Assembly (NCBI RefSeq): GCF_054482525.1
Contig: NZ_CM137006.1
Direction: 5' to 3' (one strand)
DNA: 64,000 nt
A program made the translations under genes and the position numbers. Positions 19,411 through 49,946 of the stretch are shown here, piece after piece. The notes beneath the pieces were generated by a model, which saw only the letters and a program-made list of their open reading frames with translations, was not told where the DNA came from and did not search any database. Within the stretch, counting starts at the first letter, position 1, and each line of letters begins with the position of its first letter.

Positions 19411-19791
19411 TTACTTTTTCGTTTCGGATGTTGGATAAACAGCCAGATAAACGTAACCACAGCTGCCGAGGGTGTCGGCTTCGCAGGTCAGCCCTTTCGC
19501 ATACAGTGTGACGGTATGCTGATGGCGGGGATTCAGTTCACCGCCGGTGAGCATGAGTTCCAGTTGTTTCATCAGCAGCGGAAAGGCCTGGTCCAGGTGG
19601 TACGCATCCGCGTCGCTGAACAGGCCTCTGATACCGGCGCGGTCGGCAAGGTAATGCAACCGGTTACCCTCCTGCACCAGACGTGCCCCGAAACAGGGCG
19701 TCACGGTGCAGGGTAGCCCCCCACCAGGGGCGGTTGTTGTTGTCGGGATGCGTTGTCCCGGGGAGTGTGTCTGACACGATAAAATCCTCAC
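19411..19791 (-). CDS. cbeA: CbeA/YeeU-family antitoxin, N-terminal frameshift relative to copy 2
   Basis: Residues after ~25 match YeeU ([31 protein letters not shown]...); copy 1 has a 6-C run at 19727-19732 where copy 2 has 5. Confidence 0.7.
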
Positions 19792-19856
19792 AGAAAATCG
19801 GTTAAGAATGGTCCGGTGGTGGCGATAATTCTGCTCATCTGAATGCCCTTCCAGAC

Positions 19857-20078
19857 TCAGTTCAGGGTGACGCTCATCAGCCGGACATACGGGCCAAAAC
19901 TGTCCTTACGGCGTTCAGCAAACACAGCCAGCACACCGGGAATATCCTGCACTTCACGACCGGTATACGTCTCAGCACTGCCGTGCCAGCGGTACTTACC
20001 GGTACAGAACGGAAAAAGACGGGATGCAGGATGCTGTTGGTGAATACGCATGGCTTCACCACGGGTGATAATTTTCAT
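19857..20078 (-). CDS. yeeT: DUF987/YeeT-like protein
   Basis: 73 aa, MKIITRGEAMRIHQQHPASRLFPFCTGKYRWHG...; conserved position between radC-like and cbeA. Confidence 0.7.
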   Translation of the reverse strand: MKIITRGEAMRIHQQHPASRLFPFCTGKYRWHGSAETYTGREVQDIPGVLAVFAERRKDSFGPYVRLMSVTLN

Positions 20079-20146
20079 GATGGGATACCTCTGAAGACAG
20101 AAGATAAAAGTGAAAACAAGTGTGATGTGGTTGTGACGGTGACGGG

Positions 20147-20638
20147 TTAAAGCAGACCGTGTTCGGCAAAGGAGAAAACCTGGTTGCCACCGACTATCAG
20201 ATGGTCCGGCACCCGGATATCCACCAGGCCCAGTGCCTGTACCAGACGTTCCGTGATAAGGCGGTCTGCCTTACTGGGTGTGACTTCACCGGACGGGTGA
20301 TTGTGCGCCAGCACCACGGCAGCGGCATTGTGGTACAGGGCGCGTTTAATCACTTCCCGGGGATGGACTTCCGTGCGGTTGATGGTGCCGGTGAAGAGGG
20401 TTTCACCGGCAATCAGCTGATTCTGGTTATTCAGATACAGTACCCGGAACTCTTCACGCTCCAGTCCCGCCATGTTCAGAATCAGCCATTCCCGTGCCGC
20501 ACGGGTGGAGGTGAAGGCCACGCCGGGTTCATGAAGATGGCGTTCCAGGGTTTTCAGGGCCCGCAGAATGAGACTGCGCTCGCCGGGCGTCATCTCTCCT
20601 GGCAGAAAGGAAAGTTGTTGCATTGTGCTTCTCTCCAT
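20147..20638 (-). CDS. yeeS: RadC-like JAB-domain protein (YeeS/YkfG/YfjY family)
   Basis: 163 aa; JAMM-like motif HNHPSGEVTPSKAD. Confidence 0.85.
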   Translation of the reverse strand: MERSTMQQLSFLPGEMTPGERSLILRALKTLERHLHEPGVAFTSTRAAREWLILNMAGLEREEFRVLYLNNQNQLIAGETLFTGTINRTEVHPREVIKRALYHNAAAVVLAHNHPSGEVTPSKADRLITERLVQALGLVDIRVPDHLIVGGNQVFSFAEHGLL

Positions 20639-21124
20639 TCAGTCGATGATGCGCATAATGGCGCTGCATTCCGGATGCTGCAGGGCGTAATCCCGCAGCC
20701 GGTAATAATGGACCGTCATGGCATAACACTCCGTACGACAGGCATGATGACTGTACGTCATCAGACAGGCAGCAATGCCGGCGGCTTCCGGGCTCATTTC
20801 AGCGCGGTTACCGTTCATGACATTGAACAGTACCCATGTTTCGTCATCATCGTCATCCGGTTCGGGTGCCATAAATGCCCCTCCGTTATTCAGTGTGTAC
20901 AGATTCCAGATACCACCGCAGTAGTCTTCACACAGACGGTCCATCCAGCCGAAGACACGGGGCTCCAGGGTCACCCACTGTGGAATGAGGCCAAAGTGCT
21001 GTGGCCAGAAGCTGATGCACTGTTCATCAGGGACGGGAGTGGCAACCAGTTGAGACTGGTTATTCCCTGATGCAGTAGTTACGGAAACAGAAGGTGTGGT
21101 GGAATTATGTGAAACGGTTGTCAT
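20639..21124 (-). CDS. Antirestriction protein (KlcA/ArdB-like, YfjX/YafX family)
   Basis: Start placed at ATG 21124 (MTTVSHNS...) behind AAGGA; acidic DDDDDE stretch; paralog at 48551-49036. Confidence 0.8.
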   Translation of the reverse strand: MTTVSHNSTTPSVSVTTASGNNQSQLVATPVPDEQCISFWPQHFGLIPQWVTLEPRVFGWMDRLCEDYCGGIWNLYTLNNGGAFMAPEPDDDDDETWVLFNVMNGNRAEMSPEAAGIAACLMTYSHHACRTECYAMTVHYYRLRDYALQHPECSAIMRIID

Positions 21125-21214
21125 GATATTATTCCTTATAAAAAGCAAATGAATGAAGAAGGCTCGGGGGCAGGGACAGACGTGAGTCAGGACGGCGCTT
21201 TCAGGTAAACGGTA

Positions 21215-22033
21215 TCAGCGCATGTTCTCCAGCAGCGTTTCCGCCATCACCCATAATGCGCGATTGAGCTTAATATCGGTGTCGATGCTGTGAATGGCCC
21301 GGGTATGGATACGTTTTCCTCTGGCACTGCGGCCGGAAATTCCGCCTTTCAGCATATTCTCCTGGATGGTCTGATATGCGCTCCACAGGTCCTTACCGTA
21401 ATCCTCCCTGCGTCGTGGCGTAAGAATGTCAGCGGTGGTGACGGGCTGATGTTCGTCACCATAACGGTAAGTCAGGGCCGCCTGTGCCAGCGCCTGGCGT
21501 GCCGGTGGCGGCAGGACCAGCGACTGCATGGCATCACGCTTCTCCTCTATCCGGTCAAACACGCCCACCACCTCGTAAGCCCCTTCGATAACTTTCTCCA
21601 CTACATTTCCCCGGTGTGGAACACGCACTTCCCCCAGAGACTGGCCACAGACGCACCCGTTCTGGCAGACGAACCTGAAGTAACCCGGCAGCATCTGGTA
21701 GCTGGAGGTACCGTCATGAGAGTTGAGCAGAATAATTTCAGGGACATGTTCTCCGTTTATCTCTCCGGCCCGCCGCAGACGCAGCATGTGTTTGGTATAT
21801 TCCCGGCGGCTCTGGTCGCGCACACGGGTCTGGCAGGCGAAGAACGGCTGAAAGCCTTCCCGCTGCAGATTTTCCAGGACGGTAATGGTGGGAATGTACG
21901 CATACCGTTCACTGCGGGAGGTGTGCCGGTCTTCCCCAAAAATACTGGGTACATGGCGTATCAGTTCTTCATGTGTCAGCGGACGGTCACGGCGTATCTG
22001 GTTTACATGACCAAAACGACTTGCTAATCGCAT
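21215..22033 (-). CDS. DUF932-family protein (YfjQ/YafZ-like)
   Basis: 272 aa; conserved module position; paralog at 49128-49946. Confidence 0.7.
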   Translation of the reverse strand: MRLASRFGHVNQIRRDRPLTHEELIRHVPSIFGEDRHTSRSERYAYIPTITVLENLQREGFQPFFACQTRVRDQSRREYTKHMLRLRRAGEINGEHVPEIILLNSHDGTSSYQMLPGYFRFVCQNGCVCGQSLGEVRVPHRGNVVEKVIEGAYEVVGVFDRIEEKRDAMQSLVLPPPARQALAQAALTYRYGDEHQPVTTADILTPRRREDYGKDLWSAYQTIQENMLKGGISGRSARGKRIHTRAIHSIDTDIKLNRALWVMAETLLENMR

Positions 22034-22123
22034 GATTTGCTCCTTATGAATGAGTTAGCGGTATAAATGAAAAAGCCGCGTCTTCTGGAGAAGACGCGGC
22101 CTGATGGATCAAGTGAATGACGT

Positions 22124-22357
22124 TTATTGCCTGAGAATTCCCTCACTGGCGAGATACGGATTTAGCTGTTTTCCGGCATCAGGTTCAAAATTCCAGCACC
22201 GCCAGCGTAGCTGCCCTTCAGCATTGCGAATAACCAACCGGAAATGTGTTCCCTGGTCATCTTCAATAAGCACATTAAGGTAAGCCGTTGTGACGGCAAG
22301 TGCCTGGTTGCGTGAGAAAGGGCCTTCGGGCAATAAACGTGATGTACAACCCGGCAT
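22124..22357 (-). CDS. DUF905-family small protein
   Basis: 77 aa; paralog at 50037-50246 (…[15 protein letters not shown]…). Confidence 0.6.
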
Positions 22358-22427
22358 ATCTGTTGCTCCCTGTAAGTAAAAGGCCCCGGTAATGATGACC
22401 GGGGCCTGAAGGGGAGTGACCTGATTA

Positions 22428-25274
22428 TCAGAAAGTCACGTTCAGTGTGGCCTGACCGTTATAACCTTCAGCGCTGCTGCCGCTGACACTGTGGGCATAA
22501 CCGGCCTGAACGCCCAGGGTGATATTTTCCCGGACACGGGCTTCCAGTCCGGCCTGCAGGTCCAGTGACGTGCCATTCTGGGACGGTGAGAACGTCATGT
22601 TACTGCCGGCTGCGGCTGTACCCATGCTCATGTCTCCCCGGGAGCTGAAGGTGCGGATAACAGAAGGCTGTACCCACCAGTTCACCGGCAGTTCACTCAC
22701 GCTGTGTTTGGCACTGTCGCGCAGGGTGTCACGGGATGAGGTGCCTTCGCCAAAGGTCATATCGTTGTGGCTGCCCAGACGGAAACCGGCACGCACATGT
22801 TGTGCACTGCCATGCCCGAACTTCACATAACCGGCGTTATCCTGACCGTCATCCAGGGAGAGCCCCTGCCAGGTGTACTGCAGTTGTGGCTCCAGCATCA
22901 GGTTGTCAGTGATACTGAAGGGCAGACCGGTTTCCAGTGAGCCCAGCCAGCCCCAGCCCCGGGCGCGGAAGTCGTTATTGTCCGATGACGCTTTCATGCT
23001 GTGGCGGGTTCCCTGTGCCACAATGTCAGCCCACAGGCCGGAGGATGTGTGTACCAGATTCAGGTATCCGCCCAGACTGCCGGCATCATCCCGGACCGTG
23101 CCGGCGCGGGAGCCGTCATCATCCTTAACATCAACGGAAGAATGGCCTGCAGCACCATACACCCCTGTCGTCAGAGACATACCGGCAACCTCTGTTCTGA
23201 GCAGGTCACCCTCCAGACGGACGAAGCCATAGCTGCCGCTGCTTTCCGGCGTGGCCCCACGGGCAATACCGCCGTTGTTATCGTGCCCGAGATGACCGCC
23301 CTGAATGCTGAGACGGACGCTGTTATTTTCACCGTTTACACCGGTCTGATGGCTGCGGGAGCCTGCCAGAATCCGGTCATAGTCCATTGCCTGTGTCAGC
23401 ATGGAGGCATACAGGGGGACTTCAGCACGATAAGCATTTTCACTGCGCAGGTACCAGTCTTCATCGCTGTCACGGTTCAGGGTGTAGTTAAAGGCGCCGG
23501 CCTGAAGCGGGCGGCTCAGGGCAAACGCACCTTCTTCTGTGGTGGCACCATTCTGTGCATCCACAACCCGGATACCCTGTCCGGTGGTTGCCACCCCGAG
23601 GTTACTGTTTCCGACATTTGTGAACGCAAGCCAGGTTTTGCCGGTTGCCTGGCCACCATTAATCACCAGCTGGTCAGAGGCATTGCTGCCATCAAGGCGA
23701 ACACGCATATTGATGGTGCCCCCCTGACCGGTGAGGTTACTGGTGGTCAGTTTATGGAACGTTACCGGGGAGTCGCCTTTTGCAACAGCACGGCTCAGCG
23801 CGGCATCCGGTGTCGTCTGATTATCAAAGTGAATCTCTCCTGCGTTAACAATATCGCCGGTACTGACCACATCACCATTCAGTACCATGCTGGCGCCTTT
23901 ACTGAGCTGTGTTCTGCCACTCAGACTTCCCCCGGCAGCCAGCGTCAGTGTTCCACGATGTCCGACAGTGGTGTTGCCTGCCTGTCCCCCGGCATTAACC
24001 GTAAAGCTGCCGCCATTTTCCAGTAGCAGGCCGCTGGCCTGCCCGGATATGCCATCAATACTGAACTTACCGCTGGCATTGGTCCCCTCAACAGTGGCAC
24101 CACTGTCTGCTATCAGGGCACCACCGGATGTCATGGTGACATCTGTTGCCTTACCACCGGCAGACACTGCCAGGGTACCGCCGTCATCCACCAGTGTTTT
24201 CTGCGCTGAATGGCCCTCCAGTACATCCAGGCGACCGCCGGACTCCAGAACAACGCCGTCAGCCTTACCGTTTTCCACCGTGAAATTGCCCAGACGGTTG
24301 CTGCCGGTGACGGTTGCCGCCGTACTGGTGACCAGTGCGCCGCCCTGCGTCAGGGTGACATTCGTGGCTGTACCACCGGCGTTCACCTGCAGTTTGCCTT
24401 TCTGGTTAACGGTGGTGAAATCCGCCAGACCACCTTCCTTGATAATCTGCCAGCCGTCACTGTTAACAACAGTGCCAGACGCCGTACCGCCGTTGTGCAC
24501 ATACTGGTACCCCCCATTCAGCGTGGTATCCAGTGCGTGACCATGTACAGTCTGGTCGCCGCCGGCATAAACCACAGTGGTATTTGCCGTTCCTTCAGCA
24601 GCCACAATCTGACGACCATTTTTATTGATGGTGGTGCGTACGGCATCTCCGTAGACGGTCTGCCCGGTATCACCATTTTCCGCATCCGGTCCTCCTTCCG
24701 CGCCAGTATTCACAACCGTGTCGGTTGCCATTGCGCCGGATTTGACGGCCTGCCAGCCCTTCTCATTAATGACGGTACCCGTTGCAATCCCGCCTTCATG
24801 TACCCACTGCTCACCGCCGTTCAGAGTGGTGTTCACTGCCTGCCCCTGAAGGCTCTGTCCGCCTCCGGCCCTGATAACCGTGTCTGAAACGCTTCCTCCG
24901 GCATTCACTCTCTGAAGACCACCACCGGTGACAGTAGTGTTGTTGGCGATACCGCCATTTTGTATCCATTGCCCGCCGGTATTGGCCTCGTTATCCGGCC
25001 CATACTCCAGACCGGTACTGATGGTCATTCCGTTGGCTGTACCGAAGACAATCTGGTTGTCATGATTTTCCAGTGCTCCGCCGCTCACGGTTTCTCCCGC
25101 CTGTACAACCGTGTCAGCAGCCAGTACCGGGAGTGATGTGACAGCAGCAAGAGACAGCGCAACCGCCACACCGGCGCGTTTTCCCCGTGAGCGGGCCAGT
25201 TCGGAGGCCACCACCAGGGTGCCCGTAATGTGATTCCATACCAGCCTGTAGCTGGTGTTCAGATGTCGTTTCAT
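22428..25274 (-). CDS. flu: Antigen 43 (Ag43/Flu) self-associating autotransporter adhesin
   Basis: Start at [18 protein letters not shown] (ATG 25274 behind AAGGAAAA); extended signal peptide, repetitive passenger, C-terminal beta-barrel ending ...[12 protein letters not shown]. Track ORF starts 75 nt upstream. Confidence 0.9.
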
Positions 25275-25487
25275 CAGCTTTTCCTTACAGAGGGTGAATA
25301 AAAAAGCCGGTACCCACAAATGTGGATACCGGCAGGTACAAAACAGCATGGTCAGATAAAGTGGTTTTTCCCGGACATAAATGCTTCCCCTCTCTCATCC
25401 GCCTGAGAAGTATCAGTCCGTTGTGTGCAATTCCGTTCTGCATGATGAAGAGATTCAGCTGCCTTTTCGCAGGCCATTAACCACTAT

Positions 25488-25531
25488 AAACGATCGATAT
25501 AAACGATCGATATCTGTTTTATCGATCGTTT
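25488..25531 (-). promoter_or_regulatory. agn43 phase-variation switch: three GATC sites (Dam/OxyR region)
   Basis: GATC at 25492, 25505 and 25524 inside AAACGATCGATATAAACGATCGATATCTGTTTTATCGATCG, about 220-250 bp upstream of the Ag43 start. Confidence 0.6.
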
Positions 25532-25646
25532 TATTCTATTAATAACAAGGCAGCCACGCAAGAGAAACAGGAGGAGTATGAGGGGTTTGTGTCATGTTTT
25601 CAGTTGGTTAACGCAATGTAATCAGGCATTTCCTCTGGCAGAGTGT

Positions 25647-26519
25647 TCAGAAGAAAATCCAGTTCCATACAGCGCGGGCAACAGAGACCACCGAGTCACG
25701 GACGGCACGCAGAACCGTGCGTGCAACAGAGGCAATACAGACGCTCTCCGCTGTGTCAAATATCCGGTCCACCGCACCGGTAAACTGTTCACGGGCCTGA
25801 GACCGGACAGATTCCGTGCGCAGCTCGTCCTGCAGGCGGGTCATCAGGGGACTGGCGGCATGGTCGGGAAGCGCTGTCATGAGCGCACTGACCAGCGTAT
25901 CCAGTTCCCAGCCGGTGCGGGCCGATACGGCCACAACCGGATGTACGGGCCGGAACAGACGGAATACCGCCTCCGTTTTTTCGCGAATATTCTGTGCCTG
26001 TGCGGGAGAAGGCTGAATACCGGCCATATCCCATTCATGGCAGGGCTCCGTTTTGTCGGCCTGCGTCACCACAAACAGCACCTGCTGATGTCCCCGGTGC
26101 AGGATGTGTCGCCAGAAATACTCATCCACAGACAGGGCGCGGTCATCGGCTTTAATCAGCCACAGCACCAGGTCCAGTTCGGGCAGAATGTCACGGTACA
26201 GGGCTTCATACTCTGCATCTCTGTCCCGGCTCTCGCCCACCCCGGGCAGGTCAGTGATAACCATGCTGTGACCGTGGCCACTCAGACGGAAGCGCCGCAC
26301 TTCCCGGGTGCCGGCGTGAACATCACTGACCGGGGTGACCTCCCCCTGAAACAGTGCATTACAGAGTGAGGATTTACCGGCCCCGCTTTTACCCATAATG
26401 CCAATCACGGGTTCGTGACTGGTGAGTTTGCGCAGATGTTCCAGGATGTGACGGGAAAGTGAGTAAGGCAGGGAGGAGAGCGGTTTTTCAATTGCCTCAA
26501 TGGCATCAGACGGATTCAT
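25647..26519 (-). CDS. yeeP: YeeP/YfjP/YkfA-family GTPase (copy 1)
   Basis: P-loop GIMGKSGAGKSSLCNALF and DLPG motif; start placed at ATG 26519 (the longer track ORF begins with GTG and no SD). Confidence 0.8.
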   Translation of the reverse strand: MNPSDAIEAIEKPLSSLPYSLSRHILEHLRKLTSHEPVIGIMGKSGAGKSSLCNALFQGEVTPVSDVHAGTREVRRFRLSGHGHSMVITDLPGVGESRDRDAEYEALYRDILPELDLVLWLIKADDRALSVDEYFWRHILHRGHQQVLFVVTQADKTEPCHEWDMAGIQPSPAQAQNIREKTEAVFRLFRPVHPVVAVSARTGWELDTLVSALMTALPDHAASPLMTRLQDELRTESVRSQAREQFTGAVDRIFDTAESVCIASVARTVLRAVRDSVVSVARAVWNWIFF

Positions 26520-26748
26520 ACATGTATTCCCGGTGAAAAAAGACAAAACCCCGCACACCGGAAAGATGGCGGGGGGATTCACGGAGATAATATCTGCCTG
26601 AAATTATTTGGAATGCAGGTATATGTGGCTGATTTGTATCAGCTAATGAGTACAGGTCTGAATCTAATCTGACAGTCCGCTCTGTGCCAGGAGCGGACAT
26701 TGTTTTCCAACTATTACCTAAGCCTGCGAACCATCTCATCTTCACCCC

Positions 26749-27636
26749 TTAAATTCTCAATGTATCGATAACCGCTCGTAGGGCGGGTGACACATTGCGG
26801 TGCGGATAATAGATATATGAACCCTCCAGGCGTTGGCTGTAGCATTGCAAAACTCTGATTAGCGCCCCCTGTTCTATATCATCAGACACTAATTCCTCCG
26901 GAACATAGGCCAGCCCCAGACCTAGCCTTGCGGCTTTGGCTTCCATATAACTGTCAGCAAAGGCCCATTGTCCCTGAGGCTGATGGGTGATCTTTTTACC
27001 GTCCTGATTGAGTTCCCAGACATACAGACTGCCGTCGCCGAACTGGTAAGCGATGCAGGGATGACCTACTAAATCGGTGGGGGTTTGTGGAAATCCGTAG
27101 CGCTGAAAGTGCCCGGGCGTGCCGACAACAGCCATCTCCATATCGGGCGAAATGCGCACCGCAACCATACCGCTATCCACTTCCGAGCCCAGACGTATAC
27201 CGGCATCGAAGCGCTCAGTAATAATATCGACAAACCGGCTTTCGCTGATGAGCTCCAGCCGAATATCCGGGTATCGTTGTTTAAACACCGCCAGCTTCGG
27301 CAGCAGCACTTTATCAATGGCGTGCTGGCTCGCATTAATTCGGACCGTACCCGATGGTGTATGGCGATAATGGGCCAGTGTGGCAAGCCCCATATCTAAG
27401 GCGTCAAATCCAGATTCGACGTTTCGATAGAGTAACTCGCCGGCATGGGTGAGCGATAACTTGCGCGTGGTGCGTACCAGAAGCTGCACGCCCAGTCGCT
27501 CTTCCAGCTCGCGCACTGCACGGCTAATTCCTGATTGCGCCAGGCCAAGCCTCTGCGCGGCGGCGGTAAAACTCCCTTCTCGCACGACCTGCATAAACAG
27601 ATAGAGATCGTTATAGTTTTCCCGTTTCGCCATCAT
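26749..27636 (-). CDS. LysR-family transcriptional regulator
   Basis: 295 aa; N-terminal HTH FTAAAQRLGLAQSGISRAVRELEERLGVQLL plus LysR substrate-binding domain. Confidence 0.85.
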   Translation of the reverse strand: MMAKRENYNDLYLFMQVVREGSFTAAAQRLGLAQSGISRAVRELEERLGVQLLVRTTRKLSLTHAGELLYRNVESGFDALDMGLATLAHYRHTPSGTVRINASQHAIDKVLLPKLAVFKQRYPDIRLELISESRFVDIITERFDAGIRLGSEVDSGMVAVRISPDMEMAVVGTPGHFQRYGFPQTPTDLVGHPCIAYQFGDGSLYVWELNQDGKKITHQPQGQWAFADSYMEAKAARLGLGLAYVPEELVSDDIEQGALIRVLQCYSQRLEGSYIYYPHRNVSPALRAVIDTLRI

Positions 27637-32688: not shown

Positions 32689-33297
32689 TCAGTTACGGTT
32701 ATCGTCAACCGTTGTGCGGTATGCCAGGAGCACGTACTGATCCATCAGATCCGCCAGTGCTGCGTTCTGCTTCTGACGGTCGATGATCCATTCCCCCAGC
32801 TCTTTTTCTGATTTACGTTTCAGGTTCTCCGTCCAGTCGTCAAGGCTGTTTCCGGTCATTAAATCAAGCCAGCAAAGCCAGACCAGTTTGAGGCGCAACT
32901 CAGTGCCACCAAACTGACGGAAGAGGCTGATCAGTTTATTTGCCAGAGAACGCTGCCTCAGACGTTCACATTCAGACAGCAGAATGCCTTCCAGCATCGG
33001 ATGATGAACCAGCAGATGTTCGCTGGTGCATAAGTTCACCACCAGATCATCATCCAGGGGCGGCGTGGCCCGTTTGTCAGAGCCATAAATCAGCCGGTGC
33101 AGACTCCGGGGGACGATGGCAATCTCCGGTTTTTCACCATTGAATGACACCCACCCGGGCGTCAGATTATGGAAGTAGTGGATATTCGGATGACACACGC
33201 CCCAGGATACGGCGTGCCGGGTGAAGCCGGTCAGCCATTTCTGGTAGCTTTCGTGGAGCAGCTCGTAACGGGTCTGATACTGTGGTTTCATTTTCAT
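32689..33297 (-). CDS. Hypothetical protein downstream of alpA
   Basis: About 200-aa ORF; ATG 33297 behind GTGAGGAA; no motif recognised. Confidence 0.5.
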   Translation of the reverse strand: MKMKPQYQTRYELLHESYQKWLTGFTRHAVSWGVCHPNIHYFHNLTPGWVSFNGEKPEIAIVPRSLHRLIYGSDKRATPPLDDDLVVNLCTSEHLLVHHPMLEGILLSECERLRQRSLANKLISLFRQFGGTELRLKLVWLCWLDLMTGNSLDDWTENLKRKSEKELGEWIIDRQKQNAALADLMDQYVLLAYRTTVDDNRN

Positions 33298-33384
33298 ATT
33301 CCTCACGGGGGATAACAGGCAGCAGAACGCCGCCGGCAGGCCGGAGATTGCGTCTGCTGTGGGTGAAGGGGCAGTGGTTAAAAA

Positions 33385-33570
33385 TTACGGACGGGACTGT
33401 GCAATACGCGCCTGCAGCCAGGCTTCCACTTCACTTTTCAGCCAGCGGGAGCTGCGGCCAAGTTTGATGGGAGCCGGAAAGGCCCCATCCTTGATGAGCT
33501 TGTAAAACCACTTATCGGTCAGGCCGGTCAGCTGAGTGATAAACGCCATATCGACCATCTGGTCATCCAT
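33385..33570 (-). CDS. alpA: AlpA-family transcriptional regulator
   Basis: 61 aa; ITQLTGLTDKWFYKLIKDGAFPAPIKLGRSSRWLKSEVEAWL is AlpA/Vis-like. Confidence 0.8.
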   Translation of the reverse strand: MDDQMVDMAFITQLTGLTDKWFYKLIKDGAFPAPIKLGRSSRWLKSEVEAWLQARIAQSRP

Positions 33571-33975: not shown

Positions 33976-34767
33976 TTATTCTCTGTAATTACAAACAACA
34001 GTGATCTTATCCGGTTTTTTTACCGTTACGGGTTTCAGGGGATCAATTTTATAGACCGGGGTAATGACCACGCCGTAATTTATGGAGAAAAGCGGGATCC
34101 AGCAATAAACGTCAGGATATTTCTGTGTCTCCGGAATACCTTTTGTGCCAGAGGCCATCAGATCTTTAACGCTCACGAAAAATGACTTCCGCAGATCAAA
34201 AAAGTACTCGTTATATATCACATCCTTTGCCAGCAGGATGACTGCATTACCAACAGCCGATTTTACAGGTGTTTCATCAGGTGGATTATCGTGATTGTAT
34301 ATTGTTCTTTCTATATAAATAAAACAGGCATATTTCGTCTTCTCCCCGGATAGTTGCATCTGGTATTCGCAAATGTCTTTGATATACCGACTTTCAACCC
34401 TTCCAATCATCTTATCCCGGCGATAGTGTCTTTTATGTTTCAGCGCGTACAGAACACCATTTGAACTGTCAAACTCCAGGACACTTCTGGTGAAAAGTTT
34501 GTTTTCCCAGATCTCCAGACAATACTTCTCTGCACTGACGACATTGCGTTTGTGGGGAAGATCCCGTTGATACACTCCATTTAATAAGCGTGACTGCAGT
34601 TCGCCTGCAAGTTGATAGTAACAGTTAATGTCATTAAGGACAGGTGCTGTGGCGTTGAGTAATGTGTTGATTACCTTAGAGCGCGAAAGTTTGTGGGTAT
34701 GACAGTACTCATCCACAATTCGCAGTGTCTCATCACTGGTCATATTGAAAGTTATACGTGTTGTCAT
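33976..34767 (-). CDS. Hypothetical protein with N-terminal ribbon-helix-helix-like domain and ~220-aa unknown C-terminal domain
   Basis: 263 aa; N-terminus MTTRITFNMTSDETLRIVDEYCHTHKLSRSKVINTLL fits a beta-strand/two-helix RHH pattern; low GC. Confidence 0.55.
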   Translation of the reverse strand: MTTRITFNMTSDETLRIVDEYCHTHKLSRSKVINTLLNATAPVLNDINCYYQLAGELQSRLLNGVYQRDLPHKRNVVSAEKYCLEIWENKLFTRSVLEFDSSNGVLYALKHKRHYRRDKMIGRVESRYIKDICEYQMQLSGEKTKYACFIYIERTIYNHDNPPDETPVKSAVGNAVILLAKDVIYNEYFFDLRKSFFVSVKDLMASGTKGIPETQKYPDVYCWIPLFSINYGVVITPVYKIDPLKPVTVKKPDKITVVCNYRE

Positions 34768-35094
34768 GATGAAGTTTTCTGTTAATCATACTGGTTGATA
34801 TGCATAACATTTCATAAAAAATACTGTTAATTCATATAATTGATTTTTTGACTGGTTTTATCCTCGTGTGGTGGAAAGCAGTATTACTGCCACTGTAGTC
34901 AGCATAAATCTATCACACAGAACCACCGAAAATGAAGCATTGCTCAGGGGGAAGCTGCCACTCGTATGAGTTCTCTGAACCATGATAACCAGTATTTTTC
35001 GTTTTGGGTGATTTGTTTATCGTTACAGCTACATACAGTTCATGTACCATTAAAAAATAATAAAGGTTAATTAGTATTATTTATAGAAGTATGT

Positions 35095-35300
35095 TTATGT
35101 AATTCTACCGTGTAAATGAACCCTGTAATTCTACCTTGTAAATACACCTTGTAACCAAGTCCTGTAGAAGTCTGTCTCATAGAAGTATCTGTGCAGTGAT
35201 ATTCTCTGTAGTAGTACTTGTAACTCTGTCCTTAACTCTCTCTTCAGTAATGTAGTCCCGCAACACCTGAATATAAATCTGTAATGTTCACACACTGACT
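35095..35300. repeat. Iteron-like direct-repeat array in AT-rich leader
   Basis: Tandem GTAATTCTACC(G/T)TGTAAAT (35100-35145) followed by many TGTA(A/G) half-sites; lies in the 1.4-kb ORF-poor region upstream of the Gp2-like gene at 36183. Confidence 0.5.
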
Positions 35301-36182
35301 GTAACGTGCTTTGTTAAGTAATGTCTGCTATTTTTTTCTGTTATTTTTCCTGTTGTTTTCTGTATTTTGTTGTATGGTGTAATAACTATTCTGAACCCGT
35401 CATCACCTTTATAGCTAAGAGTATGACTTCGCCAGTGTTGATACTGTGGATAACGGTGATTAAGGAATTACTGTTAATGATCTGTTCCTGCAGCTCACCT
35501 GATGAGTTTTGGTAGTAATACGTAAAAGAGTATGCCTCATGTCATTAAAAAGTCTTCCGGAGTGTTGTTTAACCCTGTACCTCTGTTACTCATGTAGTAC
35601 GTTGCGGAAAGCTACGTTAATTGTAATATCTGGTTATGGCGTTATGCCTTCAGTATTAAAAACATCTTTTACCGGAGAAACTGGGAAGTGGAAAGGCTTT
35701 CGGGATAACGTCAGGCCATTATGACGATATTACGTTAATCACAGTACAAGATAACGAGAGGGTAATGGAATTTTAAACCAGAGTAGTTCCACTGTTGTTC
35801 ACTGGAAAAAGTGATTTCCCACGCGCGTTATAAGCTTACTCCAGAGGAGATGGAAGCCTTCAACTCTGCGGTCGATCACCGGCTGGCAGAACTGACCATG
35901 AACAAACTTTACGATCGTGTTCCCGCTTCAGTCTGGAAATATGTTACCTGATAAATGTTTCTGATGAAGTACAGTCGTCACAATGACATCACTTCAGATA
36001 TTATCTGCGCTGTGATTGACTGTCACGTATGCCGTTCTCTGTATGGTTCTGATACCCGGGTGTGGTCCCACTTTCTCTGTGGCGCCCGGGGAGTTGTGAA
36101 CCTGCACGTCTTCGTGTGATAACGTTTTCTTCAAAAATTACGCCAGCGCTTCTTCCTGTGTTACAGAACACGAGGAAGAAAC

Positions 36183-37090: not shown

Positions 37091-39290
<2,200 letters not shown>

Positions 39291-42858: not shown

Positions 42859-44121
42859 CTATTTTAATGGATTGTTAATCTTTGCATATTCAAACGGGCT
42901 GATACATTGTTCTCTGTTCGCACCCAGAAAATCTGCCCACCACTGTAGCATCAGTCGACGTTCTTCCAGATGTTCTGCTTTATGGATATATGCAGCACGT
43001 ACACCATTACGCTCCTGATGGCTCATCTGACGTTCCACAGCATCGCGGGACCACAAACCTGATTCAATCAATGCACTGCACGCCATCGCCCGGAATCCAT
43101 GACCACAGACTTCCTGGGTTGTGTCATATCCCATCACCCTCAGGGCTTTATTTACAGTATTTTCACTGATCGGTTTACGCGGGTCATGTGCTCCCGTAAA
43201 GATCAGACCATTTTCACCAGCCCATGTCTGTAGTTCTGTCAGTATGGCTACAGCCTGTTTGCTGAGTGGCACAAGATGTGGTGTTCGCATCTTGGAGCCC
43301 CGGTGTGAGTATTTTACGCCTGGCAGAGGTTCGCGTTCGGCTGGAATAGTCCACATGGCATTGTCAATATCAATTTCAGACCAGCGGGAATATCTGAGTT
43401 CACTGGAACGAATAAAAACCAGTAAATTCAGCATAACTGCCAGTCGGGTGACAGGCTGACCTTTATAACCGTCAATACGCGACAGAAGTTCAGGCAGGCG
43501 TGAAAGATCCAGAGCAGGGCGATGCTGGCGTTTTACCGTGGTCAATGCACCAGCCATATCCAGAGCCGGGTTATATCTGATGATGCCAGACTGTACGGCA
43601 TAACGCATTACAGCAGATATTCTTTGCTGCAGACGACTGGCGATTTCATAAATTTGTTTTGCTTCTGCAGCACGAACAGGGATAAGCAGGTCCGGGGTAT
43701 TGAGTGTTGTGATATCCCGGTTGCCGATAAAGGGGAAAACGTGTGTCTCGAGGCTTTTGATTACTTTATCGCTGTGTGATTGTGCCCATTGTTTATTACT
43801 GGCATGCCAGCGTCGTGCAATATGTTCAAAAGAGAGTTGTAAATCAGGGACTACTTTTTTAGCTCTTTTTTGTTCGCAAGGGTCAATCCCCTCTGAAATC
43901 AGTTTTCGGGCCTCATCCCGTTTTGTACGAGCTTCGGAGAGAGAAACTTCTGGATATACACCAAGTGCCAGAGTCTTCTCCTTACCCAGAATACGATAAC
44001 GGAGACGCCAGTAACGGGAACCATTAGGATGAACCAGCAGGAACATGCCAGCCCCGTCAGTGAGTTTATAAGCCTTGTCAGTGTGCTTTGCAGCCCGGAT
44101 TTTTGCGTCAGTCAGTGCCAT
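42859..44121 (-). CDS. int: P4/CP4-57-type tyrosine integrase
   Basis: 420 aa; MALTDAKIRAAKHTDKAYKLTDGAGMFLLVHPNGSRYWRLRYR N-terminus; C-terminal catalytic region with R...HxxR...Y. Confidence 0.9.
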   Translation of the reverse strand: MALTDAKIRAAKHTDKAYKLTDGAGMFLLVHPNGSRYWRLRYRILGKEKTLALGVYPEVSLSEARTKRDEARKLISEGIDPCEQKRAKKVVPDLQLSFEHIARRWHASNKQWAQSHSDKVIKSLETHVFPFIGNRDITTLNTPDLLIPVRAAEAKQIYEIASRLQQRISAVMRYAVQSGIIRYNPALDMAGALTTVKRQHRPALDLSRLPELLSRIDGYKGQPVTRLAVMLNLLVFIRSSELRYSRWSEIDIDNAMWTIPAEREPLPGVKYSHRGSKMRTPHLVPLSKQAVAILTELQTWAGENGLIFTGAHDPRKPISENTVNKALRVMGYDTTQEVCGHGFRAMACSALIESGLWSRDAVERQMSHQERNGVRAAYIHKAEHLEERRLMLQWWADFLGANREQCISPFEYAKINNPLK

Positions 44122-44286
44122 AGTTCAGCCTTCTGAATGCGTTAAAGAGGGTACAAATTCTGTCGAACTGGGGTATACCCGCAATTATACCCACACAATG
44201 GGGTTGATGTGGGGGGAATCTGGTTGAGTTCGGTAGAATTGATTTGGAGGCAGAACGCTTAAATTGTGGCGTTCTGAAACGAAAAA

Positions 44287-44306
44287 CGGACCTCCGTGGA
44301 GGTCCG
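44287..44306 (-). terminator. Hairpin CGGACCTCC-GTG-GAGGTCCG followed by T-run on the minus strand
   Basis: Perfect 9-bp stem between the tRNA-like repeat and the integrase gene. Confidence 0.4.
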
Positions 44307-44318
44307 TTGATATGAATT

Positions 44319-44340
44319 TGGTGCCCGGACTCGGAATGAA
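44319..44340 (-). repeat. tRNA-Phe 3'-end-like repeat (island att-site remnant)
   Basis: TGGTGCCCGGACTCGGAAT matches the reverse complement of a tRNA-Phe 3' end, then diverges; no full tRNA. Confidence 0.55.
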
Positions 44341-44584
44341 ACTGGTTATATAACCAATTGTTTTGTATCGACTGTTTTATCCTTGTTCTTTTTGAGGCCA
44401 CCAATGAGGCCCCCATGTGCAATTCGAATTCTTTTGACGCTATAATCCCTCTTTCTTGTGGTTTGTTGTAATCATTTTGTCTGGTTCGATATGCTGAATC
44501 GCGGAATCGAAGTGACAACAAAATACAGAGATTTATAAAATACCTGGCTACCTGTGTTAGGGAGCGTTAACGCACAGATTTTGT

Positions 44585-44911
44585 TTATGGCTGCCAGAAA
44601 TGATCTGATGGTTTGTCGTCTGGCTCTGCAAGTACCCTGTTGATATCCCGGGAACCATGAACGATACGTTCGATACGAACTTCAGTATCCAGTACCCTGA
44701 ACAGCAGAAGGTAACGACCATACGAACAACCTCTGATCCCAGCCCCTAACTCGGGTCTTTCTCTGTAGAGTACTGGCGATTCGGCTATCAACAGACATTG
44801 TTGGTAAAGCTCTTCGGTAAAACTGATTGCACGGACAGGATTATCCTGAGCGATCCAGTCACCTATAGCTTCAAGATCGTGTTCTGCTAATGGTGAAACA
44901 GTCAGTTTCAT
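44585..44911 (-). CDS. parE: ParE/RelE-superfamily toxin (type II TA)
   Basis: 108 aa; 4-nt overlap with the upstream antitoxin gene. Confidence 0.75.
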   Translation of the reverse strand: MKLTVSPLAEHDLEAIGDWIAQDNPVRAISFTEELYQQCLLIAESPVLYRERPELGAGIRGCSYGRYLLLFRVLDTEVRIERIVHGSRDINRVLAEPDDKPSDHFWQP

Positions 44912-45171
44912 ATTGGCTGTTCACCTTCTGCCATCTTTTTGTATTTGTGCGTCAGTCGCCCGAATACCTCTTCAGCACTTTTACTTTCACCGCTGTTGAT
45001 GCCTGCGGCCACGGCGCTCTGGAGTGATTCAAGCTTTATCTGCTGTTCCCGTTCTTCCAGAGCACGAAGTCCGGCACGAATGACTTCACTTGTATTGTTG
45101 TACCGACCACTTTCTATTTGTTCGCGGATAAACGTTTCAAAGTAAGGACTGAGGGATACACTGGTAGGCAT
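44908..45171 (-). CDS. parD: ParD-like antitoxin (type II TA)
   Basis: 87 aa; ...SEVIRAGLRALEEREQQ... ParD-type fold signature. Confidence 0.7.
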   Translation of the reverse strand: MPTSVSLSPYFETFIREQIESGRYNNTSEVIRAGLRALEEREQQIKLESLQSAVAAGINSGESKSAEEVFGRLTHKYKKMAEGEQPI

Positions 45172-45242
45172 GGTTATTTTCTCGCCGATTGATTACTATC
45201 AATTAATAATAGTTAATATTCGCGAATTGTAAAATACCTCTT

Positions 45243-46109
45243 TTATGCCTTGCGGCTTTTGTTCACTGTGCTTGCCAGGGCTTCCGGGTAGTGTCTGGCA
45301 ATAATATCATTAAGCCTGTCAACCAGCTCTGGTTTCCTGAACGTGATGTGCGCGGAGCCCTTCTTAAAGTATCTGATGCTGAACATCTCATCTTCATAGT
45401 CCTCTTTACCCTGAACAGACTGGATGTGATCATCCAGATGAATGGTGATGTTTTCCCGGTTGTCGGGGATCGGTTTGCCGCTGAACAGGTGCAGCATTCT
45501 TTCCAGATCGGCAAGTCGATCGGCCTGTTGTCCGGTGATAAGATGAAACCCCCACCGGTCCCACCTCACCAGATTGTTGACGATAATTTTACTGCCAAAT
45601 TTGCAGGGTGAATTGGTTTTGTAATTCCAGCTCAGTCCTCTGAAAACGTTGAGCACCCCTCGCTCAAACACTTCATCTTTGTTCTGGTGCAGTTGTTCAA
45701 ACGTGCTCAGGATATTTGCTTCGCTGATTTCCGGAAAATTATCGTACTCCAGTGACCGGTACCATGTATCACGGGCTTGTGCATCCATTAATGACAGCAT
45801 CCCTGAACGTTGCATCAGATCACGCCAGATTTCGCGGTCAAGGTTGCGGGTGATGGCTTTCATTGCGGTTTCCGGTTTTTCCATCAGCCAGCAACCGCAG
45901 CGAAAATCCTGTTTCATGGCCCAGTCCAGTGCAGTTTTACCTCCGATGCTTTCCGTCAGCACCGAGATTTCTGCCAGTTGCCGGATAAGTGTGTCGATTT
46001 GCAGCAGCGCACTCTTTCGTACAGCCAGAATGTGGCGGATGCTGGTTGAGCCGATAACGTCCGTATGCCCGTTGACCACTTCCGGACGGGGGGCTGTGAT
46101 TTCAGACAT
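45243..46109 (-). CDS. Conserved island protein, probably DUF4942 family (copy 2)
   Basis: 288 aa; paralog of 17326-18168. Confidence 0.6.
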   Translation of the reverse strand: MSEITAPRPEVVNGHTDVIGSTSIRHILAVRKSALLQIDTLIRQLAEISVLTESIGGKTALDWAMKQDFRCGCWLMEKPETAMKAITRNLDREIWRDLMQRSGMLSLMDAQARDTWYRSLEYDNFPEISEANILSTFEQLHQNKDEVFERGVLNVFRGLSWNYKTNSPCKFGSKIIVNNLVRWDRWGFHLITGQQADRLADLERMLHLFSGKPIPDNRENITIHLDDHIQSVQGKEDYEDEMFSIRYFKKGSAHITFRKPELVDRLNDIIARHYPEALASTVNKSRKA

Positions 46110-46193
46110 AATCGATATTCCTTTTTGCAGATAAATGAAAACGCCAGCCCTGTTCAGGCTGGCGTCAGTGGAATGAAGTCTGGTGAGTAAGAC

Positions 46194-46391
46194 TCACCGG
46201 TTCTGTTGCAGAAGCTGCAACTGGCGCAGGATACGGATATCCTCCCTGGCCTGTTCGATACAGGGCAACAGTGCTGCCGAATCCGTTCTATCCTCATCGT
46301 TGTCAAAGATAATTCCCGATTCGCAGTCGATATTGTCCTGTAGCCACGCAATCAGAATATCCAGTGCGGTTTCCGTGGTTAATGATTTCAT
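46194..46391 (-). CDS. Small conserved protein downstream of yeeW-like gene (copy 2)
   Basis: Paralog of 18253-18450; start at ATG 46391, 11 nt after the yeeW-like stop. Confidence 0.5.
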   Translation of the reverse strand: MKSLTTETALDILIAWLQDNIDCESGIIFDNDEDRTDSAALLPCIEQAREDIRILRQLQLLQQNR

Positions 46392-46402
46392 GTTGTTCCT
46401 GG

Positions 46403-46894
46403 TTACCAGTCGAAAGTGGGCAGGTCCGGCAGACATTCAGCGCTGGCATCCAGATGAATGAGACTGACGCCATAACGTCGGGTAAGTGTGACAACCAGAC
46501 GACGGAACGTTTTTGACAGGCCCAGGCGCTTAAGCCGCAGAACCGGGTATGACCACGCATCGGTACGTAACAGATATCCGCTACCTGTGAAATGAATCCA
46601 TTCTGATTCGCCGGTGCCATTCGTCTGATGTGACAGCGAGTACAGCCAGGCGTTGTCCTTTGCCGTGATATGCGCGGTACTGCAGCGTATGCCGGTAAGG
46701 GCCGCCGCAGATGATGGCGTGCGCTCTGCTGATGTCCGGTCAGATTCATCAACAACACGAAGGGAGTAACCGTTATCGCAGACCACGTTAATCAGTTCAG
46801 CGAGAGTAACACCATCGACGTCAACGACAATGCGCCCCATGTTCAGTGCCTGCACGTTAATGCTGTCGGCTTCCAGCGTCAGGGCCAGTTTCAT
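46403..46894 (-). CDS. yeeW: YeeW-like protein, full length (copy 2)
   Basis: 163 aa; intact counterpart of the truncated copy at 18462-18950. Confidence 0.65.
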   Translation of the reverse strand: MKLALTLEADSINVQALNMGRIVVDVDGVTLAELINVVCDNGYSLRVVDESDRTSAERTPSSAAALTGIRCSTAHITAKDNAWLYSLSHQTNGTGESEWIHFTGSGYLLRTDAWSYPVLRLKRLGLSKTFRRLVVTLTRRYGVSLIHLDASAECLPDLPTFDW

Positions 46895-47268
46895 TGTTTC
46901 GCCCCCGGATGTTTACCCAGGGTAATGTTATTTACCGTTCTGTAATTGTCGCGGGCCATCAGGCCGGTTGCCCGGCGGGCCCGGAGGATATCAATACTGT
47001 TTATTAACTGAGAACGGGTACAGGCGCTGAATCCTGGCTGGTCGGTACGTACCAGTGCGTATTTTTCAACGAGAAAGTTCACCGCATCGCACAGTGAAAT
47101 GCCTGCCTCAATATGCTGCTCAATCACACGTTCATCAGCGAACGGTGTGTCATTCAGTGTGAGGCCGTAATGCTGGTCCAACAGTCGGGTGAGCAGTGTC
47201 TGCCAGATGGTGACGGGAGACGGGCAGCGCGATGCCTCCCGTACGTGTGTGTCAGGTAATGTTTTCAT
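46891..47268 (-). CDS. cbtA: CbtA/YeeV-family toxin (copy 2)
   Basis: Start at MKTLPDTHV (47268); the track ORF extends upstream to 47370. Confidence 0.85.
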   Translation of the reverse strand: MKTLPDTHVREASRCPSPVTIWQTLLTRLLDQHYGLTLNDTPFADERVIEQHIEAGISLCDAVNFLVEKYALVRTDQPGFSACTRSQLINSIDILRARRATGLMARDNYRTVNNITLGKHPGAKQ

Positions 47269-47314
47269 CTTAAGTTCTCTGTAACTGGTAGTGCTAAAGG
47301 TGAGATATTCGGGG

Positions 47315-47689
47315 TTATGAGGTGGTTGCGGGTGCCAGTGTCGGATAAACAGCCATATAAACGTAACCACAACTGCTGAGGGTATCGGCTTTGCAGGTCA
47401 GCCCTTTTGCATACAGCGTGACGGTATGCTGATGGCGGGGATTCAGTTCACCGCTGGTGAGCATGAGTTCCAGTTGTTTCATCAGCAGCGGAAAGGCCTG
47501 GTCCAGATGGTACGCATCCGCGTCGCTGAACCGGCCTCTGATACCGGCGCGGTCTGCAAGGTAATGCAACCGGTTACCCTCCTGCACCAGACGTGCCCCA
47601 AAACAGGGCGTCACGGTGCAGGGTAGCCCCCACCAGGGGCGGTCGTTGTTATCGTCGGGATGCGTTGTCCCGGGGAGAGTGTCTGACAC
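47315..47689 (-). CDS. cbeA: CbeA/YeeU-family antitoxin (copy 2, intact frame)
   Basis: 124 aa, [42 protein letters not shown]...; GTG start. Confidence 0.8.
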   Translation of the reverse strand: MSDTLPGTTHPDDNNDRPWWGLPCTVTPCFGARLVQEGNRLHYLADRAGIRGRFSDADAYHLDQAFPLLMKQLELMLTSGELNPRHQHTVTLYAKGLTCKADTLSSCGYVYMAVYPTLAPATTS

Positions 47690-47768
47690 GATAAAATCCT
47701 CACAGAAAATTGGTTAAGAATGGTCCGGTGGTGGCGATAATTCTGCTCTTCTGAATGCCCTTCCAGAC

Positions 47769-47990
47769 TCAGTTCAGGGTGACGCTCATCAGCCGGACAT
47801 ACGGGCCAAAACTGTCCTTACGGCGTTCAGCAAACACGGCCAGCACACCGGGAATATCCTGCACTTCACGACCGGTATACGCTTCAGCACTGCCGTGCCA
47901 GCGGTATTTGCCGGTACAGAACGGAAAAAGACGGGATGCCGGATGCTGACGGTGAATACGCATGGCTTCGCCACGGGTGATGATTTTCAT
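47769..47990 (-). CDS. yeeT: DUF987/YeeT-like protein (copy 2)
   Basis: 73 aa paralog. Confidence 0.7.
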   Translation of the reverse strand: MKIITRGEAMRIHRQHPASRLFPFCTGKYRWHGSAEAYTGREVQDIPGVLAVFAERRKDSFGPYVRLMSVTLN

Positions 47991-48058
47991 AGTGGGATAC
48001 CTCTGAAGACAGAAGATAAAAGTGAAAACAGGTGTGATATGGTTGTGGCGGTGACGGG

Positions 48059-48550
48059 TTAAAGCAGACCGTGTTCCGCAAAGGAGAAAACCTGGTTGCC
48101 ACCAACTATCAGATGGTCCGGTACCCGGATATCCACCAGGGCCAGTGCCTGTACCAGGCGTTCCGTGATAAGGCGATCTGCCTTACTGGGGGTGACTTCA
48201 CCGGACGGGTGGTTGTGTGCCAGTATCACGGCAGCGGCATTGTGGTACAGGGCACGTTTAATTACCTCCCGGGGATGGACTTCCGTGCGGTTGATGGTGC
48301 CTGTGAAGAGGGTTTCACCGGCAATCAGCTGATTCTGGTTGTTCAGATACAGTACCCGGAACTCTTCCCGCTCCAGTCCCGCCATGTTCAGAATCAGCCA
48401 TTCCCGTGCCGCATGCGTGGAGGTGAAGGCCACACCGGGTTCATGAAGATGGCGGTCCAGGGTTTTCAGGGCCCGCAGAATGAGGCTGCGCTCGCCGGGC
48501 GTCATCTCTCCGGGCAGAAAGGAAAGCTGTTGCATTGTGCTTCTCTCCAT
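48059..48550 (-). CDS. yeeS: RadC-like JAB-domain protein (copy 2)
   Basis: 163 aa; HNHPSGEVTPSKAD. Confidence 0.85.
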   Translation of the reverse strand: MERSTMQQLSFLPGEMTPGERSLILRALKTLDRHLHEPGVAFTSTHAAREWLILNMAGLEREEFRVLYLNNQNQLIAGETLFTGTINRTEVHPREVIKRALYHNAAAVILAHNHPSGEVTPSKADRLITERLVQALALVDIRVPDHLIVGGNQVFSFAEHGLL

Positions 48551-49036
48551 TCAGTCGATGATGCGCATAATGGCGTTGCATTCCGGATGCTGCAGGGCGT
48601 AATCCCGCAACCGATAATAATGGACCGTCATGGCATAATTCTCTGTACGACAGGCGTGATGACTGTACGCCATCAGACAGGCGGCAATGCCGGCGGCTTC
48701 CGGGCTCATTTCAGCGCGGTTGCCGTTCATGGCATTGAACAGTACCCATGTTTCGTCATCATCGTCATCCGGTTCGGGTACCATAAATGCCCCACCGTTG
48801 TTCAGGGTGTACAGATTCCAGATACCACCGCAGTAGTCTTCGCAAAGACGGTCCATCCAGCCGAAGACACGGGGCTCCAGGGTCACCCACTGTGGAATGA
48901 GGCCAAAATGTTGCGGCCAGAAACTGATGCGCTGTTCATCAGGGACGGGAGTGGCAACCAGTTGAGACTGGTTATTCCCTGGTGCAGTGGTTACGGAAAC
49001 AGAAGGCGTGGTGGAGCTATGCGAAAAGGTTGTCAT
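48551..49036 (-). CDS. Antirestriction protein (KlcA/ArdB-like, copy 2)
   Basis: 161 aa paralog. Confidence 0.8.
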   Translation of the reverse strand: MTTFSHSSTTPSVSVTTAPGNNQSQLVATPVPDEQRISFWPQHFGLIPQWVTLEPRVFGWMDRLCEDYCGGIWNLYTLNNGGAFMVPEPDDDDDETWVLFNAMNGNRAEMSPEAAGIAACLMAYSHHACRTENYAMTVHYYRLRDYALQHPECNAIMRIID

Positions 49037-49127
49037 GAGATGATTCCTTATAAAAAGTAAATGAATGGAAGAATGCCCGGGGACTGGTACAGACGTGAGT
49101 CAGGGTTGCACTTTCAGGGAAACAGCA

Positions 49128-49946
49128 TCAGCGCATGCTCTCCAGCAGCGTTTCTGCCATCACCCACAATGCGCGATTGAGCTTAATGTCCGTGTCGATG
49201 CTGTGAATGGCACGGGTGTGGATACGTTTTCCTTTAGCGCTGCGACCAGAAATCCCGCCTTTCAGCATATTTTCCTGGATGGTCTGATAAGCACTCCACA
49301 GGTCCTTACCGTAATCCTCCCGGCGTCGTGGCGTCAGAATGTCGGCGGTGGTGACGGGCTGATGTTCGTCACCATAACGGTAAGTCAGTGCCGCCTGTGC
49401 CAGCGCCTGGCGTGCCGGTGGCGGCAGGACCAGCGACTGCATGGCATCACGCTTTTCCTCAATCCGGTCAAAAACGCCCACCACTTCGTAAGCCCCTTCA
49501 ATGACTCTGTCCACCACATTTCCCCGGTGCGGAACACGCACTTCCCCCAGAGACTGACCACAGACGCAGCCGTTCTGGCAGACGAACCTGAAGTAACCCG
49601 GCAGCATCTGGTAGCTGGAGGTACCGTCATGGGAGTTCAGCAGGATGATTTCAGGGACATGTTGTCCGTTTATCTCCCCGTCACGGCGCAGACGCAGCAT
49701 GTGTTTGGTATACCCCCGGCGGCCCGGGTCACGTACGCGGGTCTGGCAGGCAAAGAAGGGCTGAAAGCCTTCCCGCTGCAGGCTTTCCAGCACGGTGATG
49801 GTGGGGATCCAGGTATAGTTCTCGCTTCTGGATGTGTGCTTATCTTCCCCGAATACGCTGGGGACGACCTGCATCAGTTCTTCGCGAGTTAAGGGGCGGT
49901 CACGGCGTATCTGGTTCGCATAACCAAAACGACTTGCTAATCGCAT
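49128..49946 (-). CDS. DUF932-family protein (copy 2)
   Basis: 272 aa paralog. Confidence 0.7.
   Translation of the reverse strand: MRLASRFGYANQIRRDRPLTREELMQVVPSVFGEDKHTSRSENYTWIPTITVLESLQREGFQPFFACQTRVRDPGRRGYTKHMLRLRRDGEINGQHVPEIILLNSHDGTSSYQMLPGYFRFVCQNGCVCGQSLGEVRVPHRGNVVDRVIEGAYEVVGVFDRIEEKRDAMQSLVLPPPARQALAQAALTYRYGDEHQPVTTADILTPRRREDYGKDLWSAYQTIQENMLKGGISGRSAKGKRIHTRAIHSIDTDIKLNRALWVMAETLLESMR

Follow-up and report, generated by a model that had tools for sequence, protein, structure and literature searches.

In the window, by which we mean the whole 64-kb stretch of DNA that was analysed, the gene under study is an open reading frame on the minus strand that begins with ATG and encodes 263 amino acids (Table 1). 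The N-terminus of its translation matches the one quoted in the original prediction. RefSeq annotates the same frame as WP_001301056.1, a "hypothetical protein", across many E. coli genomes. Downstream on the same strand lie alpA, 405 nt away, and a gene for a 205-aa protein. On the upstream side there is a short inverted repeat, an array of 13-nt units and a gene of YagK/YfjJ type on the opposite strand. The gene had been described as low in G+C and as located between alpA and the repeat array, and both statements are correct: its G+C content is 41.5%, below that of both the window (47.5%) and alpA (55%), and alpA and the array flank it on either side.

Table 1. Genes, protein domains and DNA elements at the yagM-like locus, in window coordinates.
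Feature	Position	Strand	Basis or remark
205-aa protein, conserved partner downstream of alpA	32689..33306	-	without Pfam, PHROG, NCBIfam or PADLOC match
alpA, AlpA-family excisionase-like regulator	33385..33570	-	PHROG 66 at 2.7e-9; RefSeq
YagM-family (PF27701/UCP007319) protein, 263 aa, WP_001301056.1	33976..34767	-	ORF; RefSeq CDS; PF27701 on homologues; hhalign
C-terminal alpha+beta domain, residues 75-263, family-specific	33979..34545	-	fold without convincing known neighbour
N-terminal ribbon-helix-helix (RHH) domain, residues 1-45	34633..34767	-	beta-strand R4-I-T6-F-N8, helix 12-25
RHH turn K-L-S28-R-S30, then second helix extending to residue 66		-	in the N-terminal domain
Candidate operator, inverted repeat TTATGCA-N12-TGATTAA, 26 bp	34782..34807	-	ends 14 nt upstream of ATG
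Array of 5-6 13-nt units TGTAAnnnnnnnn	35098..35167	+	head-to-tail, in a 1-kb intergenic region; 0 expected by chance
YagK/YfjJ ("inovirus-type Gp2") Rep-like protein, 199 aa	36183..36782	+	Pfam REP_ORF2-G2P 8.6e-5, YagK_YfjJ_C 1.8e-4

At least 80% of the surrounding 2.1-kb region is found in 738 of 5426 complete genomes, and this region, with the frame intact, is 100% identical among many unrelated E. coli strains. Full-length homologues with 21-57% identity are present in Citrobacter, Salmonella, Pectobacterium, Klebsiella, Hafnia, Cedecea, Enterobacter, Edwardsiella, Aeromonas, Buttiauxella and Providencia. The family is small, with 38 representatives at 50% identity among 1.84 billion proteins. 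Compared with a 92%-identical allele, the dN/dS of the gene is 0.32. By these sequence comparisons the frame is a real gene under selection, and the reading frame proposed earlier is confirmed by the RefSeq CDS, the full-length homologues in other genera and the dN/dS value.

The protein is not an orphan. Sequence comparison places it in the catalogued family PF27701, named UCP007319, together with YagM of E. coli K-12. Membership was established through the precomputed annotation of its homologues, all of which carry PF27701, and by comparison with YagM: the family alignment matched K-12 YagM by hhalign with a probability of 100% (E 7.7e-41, 244 aligned columns), and tblastn against plasmids matched yagM on F-prime plasmids bearing the K-12 CP4-6 region (E 6e-7). 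As for the protein itself, there was no match in Pfam-A (in a copy that lacks the PF27701 model), NCBIfam, PHROGs, PADLOC or, by sequence, the PDB, beyond sub-threshold or weak ones, which agrees with the earlier statement that no motif is recognisable beyond the N-terminus. A literature search found nothing on WP_001301056, PF27701 or UCP007319, and yagM appears in screen lists only, with no assigned function. At the level of these screens, the ASKA clone of yagM gives resistance to H2O2 and HOCl (PMC8228696), and the Keio yagM mutant loses rifampicin-induced persistence (PMC5845583).

In terms of structure, residues 1-45 are best described as an RHH DNA-binding head, a description supported by the predicted structure and by the sequence pattern. 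The AlphaFold2 model, built on a 23-sequence alignment (pLDDT 79.5), shows an extended stretch (residues 1-11) and two helices, 12-25 and the long 29-66, separated by a short turn, and within residues 1-45 the RHH topology of strand, helix, G/x-x-S/T/N turn and helix is present. Structurally, the head comes closest to the type II antitoxins ParD, PrpA, TacA, MazE4, FitA and DinJ. In the family alignment the turn residues S28 and S30 do not vary, and T6, D19 and R29 hardly do. Residues 1-39 of the family profile align with residues 1-38 of CopG from the PDB, at an E of about 1 that is suggestive, with MKKRLTITL...GLSKSAMIS of CopG against MTTRITFNM...KLSRSKVIN of WP_001301056.1.

Matches to RHH proteins at the sequence level are weak (E 0.0025 and about 1). 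The NCBIfam RHH model aCcr1 gives a sub-threshold 17.7 bits against a cut-off of 60, 3 of 23 relatives match DUF6364 weakly (E 0.001 to 0.1), and no curated RHH sequence model matches significantly, with no Pfam match at E<=10. The automatic UniProt names of some relatives, for example "CopG family transcriptional regulator", agree with an RHH head. The original prediction of an N-terminal RHH-like fold joined to a domain without known function therefore stands on predicted structure and pattern, with a domain of about 190 aa; the structure prediction it had called for does contain the RHH fold.

When residues 75-263 are modelled alone, they form a confident, compact alpha+beta domain (pLDDT 87.2, pTM 0.84), in which D191 and G207 are invariant across the family. 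Foldseek against AFDB50 returned members of the same family only, and a profile search with this domain alone found PF27701 proteins only and nothing in the PDB. Neither search placed the domain in another architecture. It is thus found only behind an RHH head and is without recognisable relative, and going by the model we consider it a candidate new fold. Foldseek and the profile searches also gave no match to a characterised housekeeping family; such a match had been named as an outcome that would count against the prediction. A weak PDB sequence match to YvoA pointed to a GntR/HutC regulator; the model contradicts this, since the expected winged helix-turn-helix (residues 46-114) with a UTRA domain behind it is not seen.

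CP4-type islands (CP4-6, CP4-44, CP4-57 and pathogenicity-island relatives) occur in most E. coli and carry adhesins, toxin-antitoxin modules and defence systems. The alpA gene is the activator of excision in CP4-57, and the control of AlpA-driven excision of CP4 islands is poorly understood. In the window, alpA and the 205-aa orphan come after the YagM-like gene on its strand, with an Hha fragment and the YfjJ-like gene running divergently. At the DNA level the 205-aa gene is homologous to the gene that follows alpA in Citrobacter locus L002 (6043-6618), and the yagM-like gene is inverted relative to alpA in the window when compared with Citrobacter. The YagK/YfjJ protein, whose RefSeq name agrees, has HUH-like LHIHFV and YLAK motifs in its translation, which point to a Rep of rolling-circle type, or a nickase, as part of the island core. 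The YagK/YfjJ-like gene is split by ISEc31 in strain 746.

Several further elements were observed around this group of genes. A 46-aa ORF at 35811-35951 (+) matches the Hha profile over positions 28-71 of 72 (E 4.5e-21), which covers the C-terminal two thirds; RefSeq annotates it as a 49-aa Hha/YmoA family protein, and it may be a truncated or a minimal Hha paralogue within the island. Just right of the YfjJ-like gene, IS100 (IS21-family istA/istB, 37403-39204) truncates a zinc-ribbon gene. The window also contains a P4-type integrase at 42859-44121, a ParDE pair at about 44100-44900, and two CP4-type "yee" modules (GTPase/Ag43 ... RadC, YeeU/CbtA, DUF4942) at about 17000-27000 and 45000-53000.

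A contig search with the family alignment (A1) gave 6 loci. At nearly all loci with enough flanking sequence, among them every chromosomal one, the YagM-like gene adjoins AlpA-family and YagK/YfjJ (REP_ORF2-G2P) genes, close to a P4-type integrase. The arrangement of these genes varies. A colinear order int-X-alpA-yagM-like-(yagL-like)-yagK-like is seen in L010, L011, L019 and CP4-6 of K-12. In L002-L006, L013 and L014 the order is divergent: the yagM-like gene heads a GTPase-DUF932-antirestriction-RadC-CbeA-CbtA operon, and alpA and yfjJ lie on the opposite strand. In L008 and L016 the gene lies beside int and is divergent from alpA. True cargo, such as type I R-M, Dpd and metabolic genes, varies around the int/AlpA/YfjJ core. 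Because the YagM-like gene has a fixed alpA, YagK/YfjJ and integrase neighbourhood while the cargo varies, we assign it to the island core, and the earlier view of it as island cargo does not hold in this comparison of homologue neighbourhoods across genera. YfjH of CP4-57 occupies the same slot in the same orientation relative to int and alpA, between intA and alpA. By BLASTP, sequence-profile and profile-profile comparison (hhalign probability 0.2%), however close its position, YfjH is not a homologue of the YagM-like protein.

The inverted repeat just upstream of the gene is also conserved. TTATGCA-N12-TGATTAA has a single match in the 64-kb window, with 0.12 expected. In the slightly relaxed form TTATGCA-N12-TGMWTAA, exactly one copy is found at each of 15 loci (L001-L006, L008, L013, L014 and L021-L026); in each case it precedes the start codon of the YagM-like gene by no more than about 40 nt. 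These motif-bearing loci represent about 8-9 lineages, and their proteins fall to as little as 21% identity. When 8 upstream regions are aligned, the two arms are left as the sole invariant block, with the spacer and flanks diverging, and the copy on the Providencia plasmid NZ_CP114799.1 (L018), upstream of a protein with 30% identity, has the same arms with a spacer of N13. AlpA and YagK are absent from that plasmid and YagL is absent from the window, so the YagM-like protein is the sole protein common to all motif loci. The recurrence of the motif is in part due to shared ancestry of the loci.

The plasmid itself is circular, with 4136 bp and three genes only, which encode the YagM-like protein, a YagL-like serine recombinase and a 381-aa orphan, and has no recognisable Rep. 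The 381-aa protein was considered as a YagK-like Rep and discarded, with no similarity and no family match.

The palindrome co-varies with the beta-strand of the head. Every member with an R-I-T-F-N/S strand has the TTATGCA motif, and the members with the strands KAVTFS, KEITFS, KRITIT, NRINVN, QPTSIN and KKHSVTF are without it. One pair consists of the Providencia protein and P0036, which are 77% identical and have the strands KRITFN and KAVTFS, respectively. At the P0036 locus (L009, 2716-2749) a different palindrome, CACCTTAAG...CTTAAGGTG, takes the same position as the Providencia one (L018, 3439-3469). On the sequences, this pair, each member with its own palindrome, is a candidate for a natural specificity swap. 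At the P0029 locus (L017, 3252-3279; strand NRINVN) a perfect repeat TGACATTA-N12-TAATGTCA lies about 100 nt upstream of the gene, with spacing equal to that of the TTATGCA palindrome and different arms. The 13-nt array is another matter. Its units start with TGTAA and it is present in the E. coli lineage only (L001, L015, L021), with none in the Citrobacter, Pectobacterium, Klebsiella or Buttiauxella loci. We rejected it as the site of the YagM-like protein, as it is unrelated to the palindrome arms and absent outside E. coli.

Taken together, we propose that the YagM-like gene encodes an autoregulated RHH repressor of the regulatory module of CP4-type islands, which here would include the downstream alpA; we put the probability of this reading at roughly 55%. 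Two N-terminal heads would pair into a two-stranded beta-ribbon with R4, T6 and N8 facing the major groove, and the ribbon would read the arms of TTATGCA-N12-TGATTAA, a site that separates the gene's own promoter region from its start codon. With about 19 bp from one arm centre to the other, binding is probably by two RHH dimers, which the long second helix (residues 29-66) and the C-terminal domain may hold together. The C-terminal domain would then serve as an oligomerisation module, possibly also as one that senses a signal or a partner. For an RHH ribbon dimer on repeated sites, the inverted repeat that co-varies with the beta-strand gives indirect support, the structure prediction being that of a monomer.

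Binding would repress, rather than activate, the transcription unit of the protein itself. In the window this unit would continue into alpA and the 205-aa gene, and in other genera into the GTPase-DUF932-antirestriction-RadC-CbeA/CbtA operon. Co-transcription with alpA is uncertain because a weak terminator-like hairpin lies between the two genes. A scan with the sigma-70 consensus found no convincing minus-strand promoter upstream of the palindrome. Against a repressor, a large, conserved domain of 190 aa is more than a plain repressor would need.

Among the alternatives, an accessory role at an origin or relaxosome survives best, and we hold it to be unlikely. Here the RHH head would bind and bend DNA near the nick site of the YagK/YfjJ protein and the C-terminus would recruit this Rep, so that the protein would serve mainly the replication or transfer of the excised island and not transcription. 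TraY, TraM and other RHH auxiliaries serve relaxases near nick sites, and the synteny with the YagK/YfjJ Rep-like gene fits such a role. The palindrome, however, hugs the start codon of the YagM-like gene whatever the position and orientation of the Rep gene (0.3-1.4 kb away, on either strand), the Providencia plasmid keeps both the YagM-like gene and the palindrome without a detectable YagK/YfjJ homologue, and the repeat array beside the E. coli gene is absent in other genera.

It is still less probable, indeed very unlikely, that the gene is a decaying remnant of a degraded cryptic island, without present function and kept by linkage. IS elements and pseudogenes abound in the island, the protein is truncated in many of its database entries, and some E. 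coli copies have an IS3 insertion in the region. The frame in the window is nevertheless intact and identical in many unrelated strains, its dN/dS points to selection, and other genera retain both full-length orthologues and the palindrome ahead of them.

The least probable reading, and a highly improbable one, is the one raised in the original prediction, a single-chain addiction or abortive-infection protein. In such a protein a toxic or effector C-terminus, behind an antitoxin-like RHH head, would be released or activated on phage infection or on loss of the island. The antitoxins among the head's structural neighbours, the defence systems carried nearby on islands and a conserved C-terminal domain, with invariant D191 and G207 and assigned to no function, are in its favour, but positive evidence is missing: PADLOC defence-protein profiles gave 0 families at E<=0.1, the C-terminal domain shows no likeness to toxins that partner RHH antitoxins, and a phage genome collection contained no match to the protein. 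PHROGs gave only a chance-level match of 13 residues (E 0.049), NCBIfam no toxin or defence match, and the adjacent cognate toxin gene or toxin domain of a type II system is not found. With membership of the K-12 YagM family added, the regulator-effector claim is not supported.

Returning to the autoregulated repressor, part of this picture was already in the databases: PF27701 is catalogued, and the RHH head is recognised automatically in some entries. What is new is the link to YagM, the synteny with the core module, a candidate operator that co-varies with the beta-strand, and a C-terminal domain without structural neighbour. In this way YagM, a family of the y-ome, gains a fold assignment and a specific candidate operator, and appears as a fixed member of the int/AlpA/YfjJ core. 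With the KRITFN/KAVTFS pair and its palindromes the function of the family becomes testable by gel-shift and reporter assays, and the gene can be struck off as a likely defence or addiction effector. The result is useful and testable; for a specialist it is not surprising.

In comparison with known systems, K-12 YagM, from the cryptic prophage CP4-6, is homologous to WP_001301056.1 over the whole length and has the same neighbourhood logic (intF - yagN - AlpA-like HTH - yagM - yagL - yagK). The identity is only about 21-25%, and YagM is extended by about 33 residues at its N-terminus, differs in its beta-strand (KKHSVTF) and reads S-H-S where WP_001301056.1 has S-R-S. Its locus has no TTATGCA palindrome, and the gene after it is that of the serine recombinase YagL, which the window lacks.

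The RHH antitoxins of type II systems (ParD, PrpA, TacA, FitA) also have an RHH followed by an extended helix, and are the best structural matches to residues 1-70. They differ in having a cognate toxin gene and a tail that wraps the toxin, and they are 3x shorter, whereas WP_001301056.1 has no toxin gene and ends in a folded globular domain.

A wider analogy can be drawn with SaPI Stl and phage CI, master repressors with a comparable two-domain logic, where a DNA-binding head is joined to a C-terminal domain that senses a partner or signal. By this analogy, proteins of the YagM family could be master switches of AlpA/YfjJ islands in Enterobacterales, in which the RHH head would silence alpA and the operon through TTATGCA, and a helper phage, a conjugative element or stress would target the C-terminal receiver and so trigger excision. 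We consider this extension quite unlikely. The Stl/CI-like position, beside int and divergent from the excision/replication operon, is compatible with L008, L016 and the loci with divergent alpA-yfjJ. Unlike that layout, the YagM-like gene is colinear with alpA in L010, L011 and L019, and the heads of Stl and CI are of HTH type, unrelated to the YagM-like protein in sequence and fold.

Finally, CopG of pMV158, Arc and Mnt have the same N-terminal fold and register as the head of WP_001301056.1. CopG is an RHH alone, of 45 aa, to which WP_001301056.1 adds the long helix and the 190-aa domain, and the arms of CopG-type operators are adjacent, whereas those of the candidate operator are about 19 bp apart. 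CopG-like repressors and WP_001301056.1 also share an adjoining gene of Rep type and a palindrome at the protein's own promoter region, implying autoregulation.
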